Origin: an uncultured Candidatus Binatia bacterium
GTDB taxonomy: Bacteria; Desulfobacterota; Binatia; UBA9968; CAXXLF01
Length of the DNA: 64,000 nucleotides
Reading direction: 5' to 3'
Assembly (NCBI GenBank): GCA_965218425.1
Contig: OZ244621.1
Location: forward strand, 768,001-832,000
Of this stretch, positions 4,751 through 7,561 are shown one piece after another (the stretch's first letter is position 1; every line of letters begins with the position of its first letter). Under the pieces are notes generated by a model. It did no database searches and was not told where the DNA came from. It saw only the letters and a program-made list of their open reading frames with translations. Made by a program: the position numbers and the translations under genes.

Positions 4751-4771
4751 GATTAAAACAAAATTAAATTT

Positions 4772-5478
4772 GGGTCATGCCTAGCTGAGTGGGTTTTCGC
4801 ATAGGTACTGTAGCAGGGTTCGATACTTGTTGGAACCTCGACGGTTGTATCGCCATTCGGTTTCCTTGAGATGGAGGTGCAAGGTGTGTTTGGGCAGGCC
4901 TTTGAACCTTGCCAGCCTGACCTTCGCCAGAGCCCACAAGCCCTAGATGCCGTTGATATGGACGGCCCCCTTGGTGAACTCCTCCTTGCAATGATCGACG
5001 CGGAAGTGACCATAGCCGAGATCGACTAGGGCGTTGTAGCCACGCCAGCCATCGGAATGGATGACGGTGCTGGCGTCCACCCGGCCCCGGATAATGCCCT
5101 GTAACGTCGGCTTCGAGCAATCCGAGACGATCTCGGTGTAGACTTGCCCCTGGCGCTCGAAGATGCCGAAGACGGCTGTTTTGCCGTAGGCACCGCGCCC
5201 CAAACAAGCTCTCATCGACCTCGACGACACCAAACAAGGGACGCTGCGTTTCACAACCAAGCACAATACGCTCCCTCAAGCCACGGTAGAGCCGGTTCAC
5301 GGTGTGGCGGTTCAGACCGCTCAGAGCCGCCGCCTGGAGTGCGGTCAAATCAGCGGCAAAACAGCGCACGACCCCCCGGATCTTGGCCTCAGAAGTCCTT
5401 GAACGCTTCGCATGCTTGTTTTTCATTGCCATGTATAGCCTTATGCATCATTCTATATTCCTCAGCTAGGCATGACCC
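4772..5478 (-). mobile_element. IS1595-family insertion sequence (IS1016-like, 707 bp)
   Basis: Perfect 18-bp terminal inverted repeats GGGTCATGCCTAGCTGAG (4772-4789 and 5461-5478); 8-bp target duplication TTAAATTT (4764-4771 and 5479-5486). Confidence 0.95.
4781..5432 (-). pseudogene. IS1595 transposase, inactivated
   Basis: VEVDES, HSDGWRGY and HINGI*G...KETEWRYN motifs are split across frames; frameshift near 5195 and TAG at 4943-4945. Confidence 0.9.
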
Positions 5479-5660: not shown

Positions 5661-6863
5661 TCAACGCCTTGGAATTTTGAGTTGCTGACCGACGGTAATG
5701 AAGTGGATGTTCGAAAGCCCGTTGAGGCTCTGAATTTCACGGATGGGGATTCGATAGGCATTGGCGATATGGGAGAGGGTCTCTCCCCGTGCGACCTGAT
5801 GTCGCACCCAGAGCCCAGCCACCGCCTTTTCATAGGCTCGGGTAAGAACTTCCAGCCGCTCCGCAGGCACTTTCACTCGATACCACTTTGGGATGACTCT
5901 GATCCTGCGGCTCAATGCTGGGTTCCAGGCGAGAAACTGCTTGCGCGAAACATCGGCAAATCGAAGCAAAAATGAGACGGAAATGAGCTGATCCATCTTC
6001 AACTCTGCGAAGTTAACCGGTGTATGGTACTCCAAATCGGGTAAATACTCTTCATCGCGTTTTGCTACGTCCACCGCGGCCAGAAACTCTGCGTAAAAAT
6101 TCTTAGACGACACACCGAAACGGCGGCCCTTGTATTTACGGATTATTTCCATGAAATCGTCGGTGCCAACTCTTGCAATTGCCCGGCGTATACCGTTCCG
6201 TCCATGATTGTAAGCGGTAATTGCTAAGGGCCAACTGCCAAACATGTCGTAGTTTTCCGCCAATAAACTGGCGGCGGCGCGGGTGGATTCCAGTGGATCC
6301 TTCCTCTCGTCCACGGTGGATGTGATTCGGAGGTATTTTCGTCCTGTCCTGCGTATAAACTGCCACATGCCCACCGCACCCGCACTTGAGCGAGCATTCA
6401 CCTGAAAAGACGATTCGATGAGGGGTAAGTACGCAAGCTCCACAGGCAGACCACGCTCCTGAAAAACTGCTTGAATCTGTTCTATATAACGCTCGGAGCG
6501 CTCCATTCCCAAGATAAAGTTCTCTTTTGCCCCTCGCTGCCCCAAAACCCTGTGCCTCGACTCGAGGCCGTGTTGACGAACAATTCTCATGCGTTCGCGA
6601 CGCACGAGGCTACGGACACGTCGTCTTTTGCCCACTCGCATAACCTTGTATATCTTCGACGGATCCATGGGGTCGTAAAAAACAATTTCTTCTGTACTAT
6701 ATTTAGTAAAGATCTGCTTCCAAAATTCGATGGCCGGCTCAAGTCCGGAGGGAACCGGGAAAGGACTGGCCCCTGCGGAATCCTCCTGGCCCACCGCACG
6801 GAAGGAAACCAAGGAGACTACAAGCAATAAAAGACAAATGGGAAGTCGTTTGGAAAAAACCAT
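5661..6863 (-). CDS. Lytic transglycosylase (SLT) with C-terminal LysM domain, MltD-like
   Basis: LPLIESSF, GAVGMWQF, AITAYNHG and GETLSHIA LysM motifs; signal peptide from ATG at 6863. Confidence 0.9.
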   Translation of the reverse strand: MVFSKRLPICLLLLVVSLVSFRAVGQEDSAGASPFPVPSGLEPAIEFWKQIFTKYSTEEIVFYDPMDPSKIYKVMRVGKRRRVRSLVRRERMRIVRQHGLESRHRVLGQRGAKENFILGMERSERYIEQIQAVFQERGLPVELAYLPLIESSFQVNARSSAGAVGMWQFIRRTGRKYLRITSTVDERKDPLESTRAAASLLAENYDMFGSWPLAITAYNHGRNGIRRAIARVGTDDFMEIIRKYKGRRFGVSSKNFYAEFLAAVDVAKRDEEYLPDLEYHTPVNFAELKMDQLISVSFLLRFADVSRKQFLAWNPALSRRIRVIPKWYRVKVPAERLEVLTRAYEKAVAGLWVRHQVARGETLSHIANAYRIPIREIQSLNGLSNIHFITVGQQLKIPRR

Positions 6864-6930
6864 GCGCCCCGCCCACCGGATGAAAGATTTCAATATGATA
6901 TCGGCTGAACCACCAAGGGTCAAGAAAAAT

Positions 6931-6970
6931 CAAAAAAAAGGACCCGGCATTGCCATCGCATGCCTGGGGT
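6931..6970 (-). terminator. Intrinsic-terminator-like hairpin with U tract
   Basis: Minus strand CCCAGGCATGC-GATG-GCAATGCCGGG-TCC followed by a T run. Confidence 0.45.
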
Positions 6971-7000
6971 GATAGAAGATAAAAAATGAGGTGAATTCCT

Positions 7001-7561
7001 ATGAAACTCTTTTCTTCCAGTAGTTGACCTTTCGCCCACAGGACTAGGCTTGTCCTGGCAGAGAAAAATATTCCTTACGAGCTTATCGAGGTGGACTTAA
7101 AAAATAAGCCAAAGGAACTCTGGGAGCAAAACCCATACGGGAAGGTTCCTGTACTTATGGACGGCGACGTGACCGTTTACGAATCTGCCATCATCAACGA
7201 ATACCTCGATGAAAAGTTTCCCCAAGTTCCTTTGGTACCAACGGACTTAGCCCAAAGGGCGCGCATGAGGATCTGGATTGACTTCTGCAATACCAGGCTC
7301 CAGCAGGCGGCAAGCAACTATCGGCACGGGCACGAAGTAGAAAAAGCGAAAAAGAATCTCAAAAAGCACCTCCTCACCCTGGACCGGGAAATGACGGATC
7401 GGGAATATCTTGTTGGCAGCTACTCCTTGGCGGACTTAACCTACATCCCATTCTTTGTACGCCAGCCACGCTACGGGTATACCGTCGACGATAGCACCCC
7501 CCATGTTAAGGCATGGATGGACCGCCTCCTGGCACGCCCGGCCCTGAGAGCCGAGCCCTGA
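7001..7561 (+). CDS. Glutathione S-transferase, probable selenoprotein (Sec at codon 9)
   Basis: RBS GAGGTG, then ATG at 7001: MKLFSSSS[TGA 7025-7027]PFAHRTRLVLAEKNIPYELIEVDLKNKP, in frame with NPYGKVPVL...YESAIINEYL. Confidence 0.8.
7034..7059 (+). promoter_or_regulatory. Candidate bacterial SECIS stem-loop
   Basis: CAGGAC (7039-7044) pairs with GTCCTG (7052-7057) around TAGGCTT; the stem starts 11 nt after the UGA. Confidence 0.6.

Follow-up and report, generated by a model that had tools for sequence, protein, structure and literature searches.

The locus described here raises the question of whether a TGA triplet at the ninth codon of a GST-like gene ends translation or encodes a residue, and what kind of protein would follow. 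The gene lies in a stretch of 64,000 nucleotides, referred to as the window, from the genome of an uncultured Candidatus Binatia bacterium. The early stop almost certainly encodes selenocysteine (Sec) at the catalytic position. The features of the gene and its surroundings are as follows.

5661-6923, minus strand: divergent neighbour, a lytic transglycosylase (SLT + LysM), a remnant of an older gene order and no partner
6988-6993, plus strand: Shine-Dalgarno (SD)-like site GAGGTG, 7 nt 5′ of the ATG at 7001
7001-7561, plus strand: full coding sequence for a 186-residue GST-fold protein with predicted Sec9 (domains GST_N_3, GST_N_2 and GST_C; fold model)
7025-7027, plus strand: TGA codon 9, predicted Sec, U9 of a U-P-F-A motif where helix 1 starts; the frame continues into the GST body
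7039-7057, plus strand: predicted bacterial SECIS hairpin, stem CAGGAC/GTCCTG, starting 11 nt past the TGA, with GG at 7047-7048
7091-7093, plus strand: internal GTG (residue 31), the false start chosen by gene callers (ORF list and public protein)
7106-7186, plus strand: glutathione-site residues K36, K48-V49-P50 (cis-Pro position) and E61-S62, aligned with GSTO1
7286-7288, plus strand: Cys96 in helix 4, kept in paralog 1 and missing in paralog 2
7424-7435, plus strand: N-capping box S142-x-x-D145 of the GST C-terminal domain (by conservation; motif per PMC4138524)
7574-8668, minus strand: convergent neighbour, an Amidohydro_2 protein; the GST gene is alone on its strand here

The reading frame begins with ATG 7001 and eight codons before the TGA at 7025-7027, and its terminal stop is a second TGA at 7559-7561. 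An earlier note on this DNA described a ribosome-binding site, this ATG and an in-frame TGA continuing into the GST body, and all of these coordinates hold. Its suspicion that gene callers truncate the gene at 7091 is borne out by the ORF list and by the 156-residue product from GTG 7091, which is an entry in the public protein collection; lengths run from 98 to 156 residues among the 15 listed of the 83 members of its public cluster. A start at 7091 loses the active site together with strand 1 and helix 1, and no SD-like word lies within 20 nt upstream of the GTG, which counts against it. Of 78 related loci, 69 have an SD-like word 5′ of the ATG, and the C-terminal end falls at aligned position 186 in 77 of 80 relatives. 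The public annotation, with the active site missing, is corrected here to 186 residues. Contigs from three DNA runs (two studies), one of which is possibly the source of the window, cover the TGA codon with zero differences. One RNA-library contig corresponds to 7000-7208 with no differences at a depth of 2.6; contigs cannot demonstrate transcription. A promoter and terminator scan returned nothing on the strand of the gene, and Rfam gave chance matches only over 6950-7150. Elsewhere in the window, overlapping frames at 4764-5432 (minus strand) resemble a frameshifted transposase remnant, presumably IS1595-like by its motifs.

The stop itself, together with other broken frames in the window, could indicate a nonsense mutation or a sequencing error in a pseudogene, the alternative that the earlier note had set beside its own proposal. 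The distribution of the gene contradicts this. It is carried by 113 of the 123 genomes of the order, and the TGA is present in all five genomes of the host's family. A sample of the class, searched at E 1e-45, gave matches in 45 of the 50 genomes from this order and in 0 of the 251 from other orders, while 0 of 250 further genomes of the phylum matched the Sec-GST profile at E 1e-48. The 150 order-wide matches listed comprise 147 with one TGA, two cut before codon 9 and one of full length without a stop; genomes flagged as unpublished (G322, G324, G339 and G357) are included in the order-wide tallies and contribute five of the 150. Among 80 named loci, codon 9 is TGA in 77, TGT (Cys) in one and not covered in two, so that TGA stands in 77 of the 78 that cover it. 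It is also TGA in all 31 loci examined at this codon, which overlap with the 80, and in 20 of 20 second paralogs, which were hand-picked. The TGA-bearing relatives span three families at 52-91% identity and, as kin, are not independent samples. Residues downstream of the TGA are strongly conserved among them. In each of four sequencing runs, a contig of a different relative matches solely 7024-7083, the 60 nt holding the TGA and the hairpin, at about 90%, which shows the conservation of this stretch at the DNA level. A TGA shared across three families at such identities, contigs without differences and conserved downstream residues all argue against a pseudogene, and order-wide conservation of the TGA refutes a nonsense mutation; the probability left to this alternative is negligible.

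Further from the host, Cys takes the place of the TGA. The nearest non-Binatia relatives have CP[F/Y]A at the Sec9 site, and in the aligned stretches of the best 150 distant relatives the commonest words there are CPFA (41) and CPYA (17). The comparison of homologues that the earlier note proposed thus came out in its favour, since relatives keep the TGA with the hairpin (77 of 78) and distant relatives have Cys.

The search for the Sec machinery, also proposed in that note, gave a complete set in the host. Its genome (one contig, 97% complete) contains selA, selB, selD and tRNA-Sec, each above cut-off and within about 11 kb, and selD itself has an in-frame TGA. Across the order, selA is found in 110 of 123 genomes; the 13 without selA are also without selB, 12 of them carry the Sec-GST gene, which counts against the Sec reading, and seven of the 13 retain tRNA-Sec or selD. 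In six genomes with a TGA-bearing GST (G006, G320, G329, G332, G347 and G356), none of selA, selB, selD or tRNA-Sec was found. All 13 assemblies without selA are in 40-850 contigs, and selA is present in 23 of 23 genomes of 10 contigs or fewer (mostly one genus). Since the sel genes are clustered, gaps in the assemblies probably explain why they are missing. The lack in G006, which is 100% complete by markers in 240 contigs, is unexplained by such gaps.

The six fragmented genomes with the TGA gene and no sel gene found are what favours reading UGA as another residue (Trp, Gly or Cys). Against this, RF2 is encoded in the host genome, 25 of 80 relatives use TGA as the terminal stop of the gene, and TGG is the codon at conserved Trp sites in all 80; an alternative genetic code is ruled out by these three observations. 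That UGA stands for another residue, or that GTG 7091 is the true start and the part before it plays no role, is very unlikely indeed.

As a separate observation, redox motifs with an in-frame TGA (CxxU, UxxC, CxxxxU and others) occur in at least 16 other candidates in the host genome, which judged by its sequence looks selenoprotein-rich. Among the 17 of 23 candidates listed, family labels are a reading of motifs. In a crude scan, many have a hairpin whose loop, GG(N) or GU(N), lies 17-23 nt past the TGA. Candidate sites on contig C1 include 2471140, 2282341, 3004097, 3494759, 2289461, 2286647, 998663, 1602771, 1339694, 2280856, 3597834, 1151839, 3707210, 4140079, 4075993 and 3186166. A genome scan on hairpins only returned 1975 TGA sites; without conservation, such a scan is uninformative.

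The hairpin CAGGAC/GTCCTG, which the earlier note placed 11 nt after the UGA, is confirmed at 7039-7057. Taken from the window sequence alone it is weakly above chance, with z of -0.7 to -1.8 against shuffles; among 5000 synonymous re-codings, drawn with rough codon usage, the same 6-bp stem recurred in 222 and an equally good fold in 318. Across relatives, its conservation is far above chance. The five conserved four- or six-fold degenerate codons of the hairpin have a modal codon share of 90-100% across 80 loci, whereas at 36 comparable sites outside it the share averages 53% and does not exceed 80%. This synonymous freezing covers hairpin codons 14-19. AGG is used for Arg14 in 74 of 78 loci and for Arg16 in 78 of 79, against 6.4% of the Arg codons elsewhere in the gene. 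In the family consensus, a stem of 8 bp closes a GG(A/C) loop. Over 38 rows, picked so as to include variants, 95% of cells pair, five of the eight pairs are invariant and two have changed on both sides. The covariation score was reached by 3 of 500 shuffles, which is modest support.

The bacterial SECIS model specifies, in the accessible text of its source, a loop of 3-9 nt, an upper stem of 4-16 bp, 16-37 nt from UGA to loop and a minimum free energy of -7.5 kcal/mol or lower (PMC13188914). The window hairpin lies within all four ranges (7-nt loop, 6-bp stem, 17 nt spacing, -9.8 kcal/mol). The rule of a G in the first two loop positions is satisfied by the family consensus GG(A/C) and fails in the lowest-energy fold of the window, since its 7-nt loop opens with U-A (probability of the inner A-U pair, 0.01). 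Position 7045, which the earlier note took for a possible bulged U, is a stem-paired A in 71 of 79 loci; in the window it is U and gives a U-U mismatch. In the fdhF SECIS of E. coli, the upper stem starts 11 nt after the UGA (position 15), with G23 in the apical loop (PMC8659212). The likeness to fdhF that the note drew stands for the 11-nt spacing, as the Sec-GST stem also runs from position 15 with G23 in the loop, and falls for the bulged U: fdhF has a bulged U17 and U24, whereas paired G17 and G24 are found here in 36 of 36 distinct rows. A bulged-U hairpin of the fdhF type was rejected, as 7045 is A in most loci and the fold requires a 2-nt loop, unscorable in ViennaRNA. With the host machinery, the conserved TGA and the conserved hairpin in support of the U-P-F seleno-GST first proposed, UGA9 is with great confidence predicted to be read as Sec via SelB and the hairpin. 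The complex of SelB and Sec-tRNA would bind the hairpin 11 nt past UGA9 for Sec to be inserted.

The sole copy with Cys at codon 9 (L135, TGT) belongs to paralog 2 and is sister to a TGA copy, nested among TGA copies in the trees (quick trees, as throughout). In this copy, which is the best control for the hairpin, Sec has recently reverted to Cys and the hairpin has been lost, and the other copy in the same assembly (L081) retains TGA. Compared with its sister, it has synonymous differences at codons 13, 14, 16 and 17 and a broken stem; 54 of 169 same-residue codons differ overall, so that the rate as such is not exceptional. No selB was found above cut-off in this assembly, and the change to Cys may reflect loss of the Sec trait or chance.

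The protein matches PF13409 at 74.3 bits (cut-off 25), and its AlphaFold model is a GST fold (pLDDT 82, 13-row alignment). The claim that the UGA takes the site of the catalytic Cys of a CP(F/Y) motif is upheld by alignment, in which Sec9 falls on the cysteine of CPF in human GSTO1 and in Burkholderia SspA-like proteins. All 80 loci share K36, K48-V49-P50, E61-S62 and D145 without exception, and the N-capping box has S/T in 80 of 80 and D in 80 of 80. The features of Cys-type GSTs are all present, namely U-P-F-A in the position of CP[F/Y]A, the cis-Pro (its geometry taken from the alignment), the E-S pair and the N-cap S/TxxD.

The position of the motif, K36, cis-Pro, E-S and the N-cap are shared with the omega and lambda Cys-GSTs (GSTO1-1, PDB 1eem/6pnm; plant GSTL, CP[F/Y]A). 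The match to GSTO1 has an E of 3e-25; the Sec-GST differs in having Sec for Cys and in being without the roughly 22-residue N-terminal and 27-residue C-terminal extensions. An N-terminal extension preceding the thioredoxin domain is a defining trait of the omega class, and here residue 1 aligns with GSTO1 residue 23-24, leaving none. Tau GSTs and SspA score as well as omega or better, and membership of the omega/lambda class would therefore be a tentative assignment.

The closest sequence and fold matches are SspA/RegF proteins and not omega GSTs (PDB 4qq7, 6v91 and 4hoj; 33-36% identity), with CPF at the same site and some structures solved with glutathione. As these best matches are betaproteobacterial SspA/RegF proteins with CPF and SspA is also the best NCBIfam match, the protein could be an SspA-like regulator or ligand carrier in which Sec9 is a redox switch and not catalytic. 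This is improbable, as the score is far under the NF007016 cut-off (123 against 314 bits), on which SspA identity was rejected, and SspA-like proteins fall on a separate branch outside the Sec-GST clade in both trees. The P-H-P stretch of these SspA matches, which has a role in RNA polymerase binding, is replaced by P-Q-V.

A two-residue mechanism, in which Cys96 resolves Sec9 through a selenenylsulfide, is suggested by the presence of Cys96 in 79 of 80 loci and by Met96 in the single Cys9 copy. That copy, however, belongs to paralog 2, and the 20 of 20 second paralogs keep the TGA and hairpin with Cys96 in none (Met, Phe or Leu instead), on which Cys96 was rejected as the resolving residue. 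The Cys9 relative P0003 likewise has Cys96, and the GSTO1 residue aligned with position 96 is a Phe of helix 4. Cys96 is probably not a resolving cysteine, and the two-residue mechanism is highly improbable.

In Cys-GSTs, attack on a glutathionylated substrate leaves the enzyme in a mixed disulfide, from which glutathione restores it (PMC4138524); because of this chemistry, a selenium version of the mechanism is suggested. By homology, the Sec-GST is somewhat favoured to be a glutathione-dependent deglutathionylating reductase like the omega and lambda Cys-GSTs. The Sec9 selenolate would attack the sulfur of its substrate, a mixed disulfide or a small molecule bearing glutathione, and free the product, and an Se-S-glutathione intermediate of the enzyme would then arise. 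A second glutathione would regenerate the Sec9 enzyme as GSSG leaves, and the enzyme would work with a single nucleophile and no resolving cysteine. The best explanation as a whole, a 186-residue Sec form of a Cys-type GST acting as a deglutathionylating reductase, is held with a little more than modest confidence. For glutathione synthesis, the host has gshB above cut-off and a GCS2-type ligase; E. coli-type GshA was not found in its genome. No glutathione reductase scored above the TIGR01421 or TIGR01424 cut-offs in this genome, so GSSG recycling is unexplained, which counts against the best explanation. The genome also holds five candidate flavin disulfide reductases, one of them (C1:2282215-2283546) with a TGA, and 13 GST-like matches. 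Within the window, another GST-fold gene (L023; 29808-30431, minus strand) has an S-P-N-C motif and no TGA.

The main rival to the deglutathionylating reductase is a selenoprotein acting mainly as a glutathione peroxidase, in which Sec9 reduces hydroperoxides and glutathione of the GST site recycles it. Engineered seleno-GSTs have high peroxidase activity in the accessible text of PMC9944854, but they swap a Ser in other GST classes; natural Cys-GSTs with a motif of the Sec9 type are mostly without peroxidase activity (PMC4138524). The many other TGA-bearing redox candidates of the host genome fit a peroxidase, whereas the CP[F/Y]A retained in the nearest Cys relatives points to an inherited reaction. 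On balance, the peroxidase is unlikely.

Gene order in relatives gives a hint of the substrate of the reductase, namely salvage of imported glutathione-type peptides or conjugates. A family-5 ABC permease precedes the Sec-GST gene in 32 of 101 loci, including 20 of 20 second paralogs. An ornithine-cyclodeaminase-family gene is nearby in 21 of 101 loci and a carbon-nitrogen hydrolase (Nit1-like amidase) in 16 of 101, as counted in flanks of 3-4 kb, some cut at contig ends. The recurrent order in paralog 2 is a family-5 solute-binding protein, two permeases, Sec-GST, an ornithine-cyclodeaminase/mu-crystallin-family gene and the Nit1-like amidase, and this importer order was observed in L144-L163, L135, L093 and L076. 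At some paralog 1 loci, DUF3105 follows the Sec-GST instead. The hydrolase is nearest to deaminated-glutathione amidase at 212-232 bits, below the cut-off of 355, and the importer neighbour is also below family cut-offs. Its assignment to the glutathione importer Gsi did not hold, with GsiB in fifth place among NCBIfam matches and in thirteenth among those to solved structures. No ortholog of the importer's binding protein was found in the host genome (best 26-27%).

A joint reading, speculative as it stands, would make this the first tractable natural seleno-GST, with chemistry changed by selenium, in an ancestral conjugate-import module. The changed chemistry, itself doubtful, would make the GST scaffold a natural glutathione peroxidase or a deglutathionylase that works very fast. 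The module is a tentative proposal in which the family-5 peptide importer, Sec-GST, an imine reductase-like protein and the Nit1-like amidase would import and strip conjugates. If the joint reading were true, Sec would have been gained by GSTs several times independently, twice in Binatia alone.

A second, rarer Binatia Sec-GST with a U-P-[W/Y]-C motif (UxxC) is seen in L026 (G003:C221) and L166 (G193:C15). This subfamily has its own shared hairpin with a GAT loop, and the 20 loci examined have TGA in 2, Cys in 16 and Ser in 2. Both loci have CPFC/SPYC proteins as their neighbours in the tree, and an AU test on a quick tree, setting 16 rows against 21, rejects a single clade that would unite them with the present family (p-AU 0.0016); the group was named once the first tree had been seen.

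The gene described here is real, an order-wide selenoprotein GST, and a further branch of an already catalogued predicted family. The statement of the earlier note that Sec-GSTs have been predicted from metagenomes and are poorly characterised agrees with the accessible texts (PMC1088965, PMC13188914). In the portions available, four GST-like selenoproteins are reported from the Sargasso Sea in 2005 (PMC1088965) and 12 in GOS (PMC2398784); the Sec-GST family (PF13409) is ‘predicted with high confidence’ (PMC13188914), and reviews give Sec-GSTs as predicted and uncharacterised (PMC9312934, PMC13188914), still predicted only in the available text of a 2026 review. No paper on the present lineage was found in the literature searched, with subscription papers outside its scope; the main text of PMC12013277 mentions neither GST nor Binatia, and its supplements may list such sequences. 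The lineage offers full-length 186-residue sequences from more than 100 genomes, two paralogs, a natural Cys revertant and a well-defined SECIS, and the question of the role of selenium in a natural GST becomes directly testable with it.

As far as the accessible published sequences go, the lineage shares with the Sargasso proteins the GST fold (PF13409/COG0625), a single Sec at the N-terminal active-site Cys followed by P and an aromatic residue, and a bacterial SECIS within the coding region. By-eye comparison sets the Sargasso flanks V-T-U-P-W-V-Q-R and R-R-U-P-[Y/W]-A-I-R against U-P-[Y/F]-A-H-R-T-R here, and three of the four Sargasso sequences are visibly short fragments. Cys proteins with similar flanks (P0072, P0041 and P0047) lie outside the present clade. 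The lineage described here differs in being confined to one order among the genomes searched, nearly universal there, and present as two paralogs.
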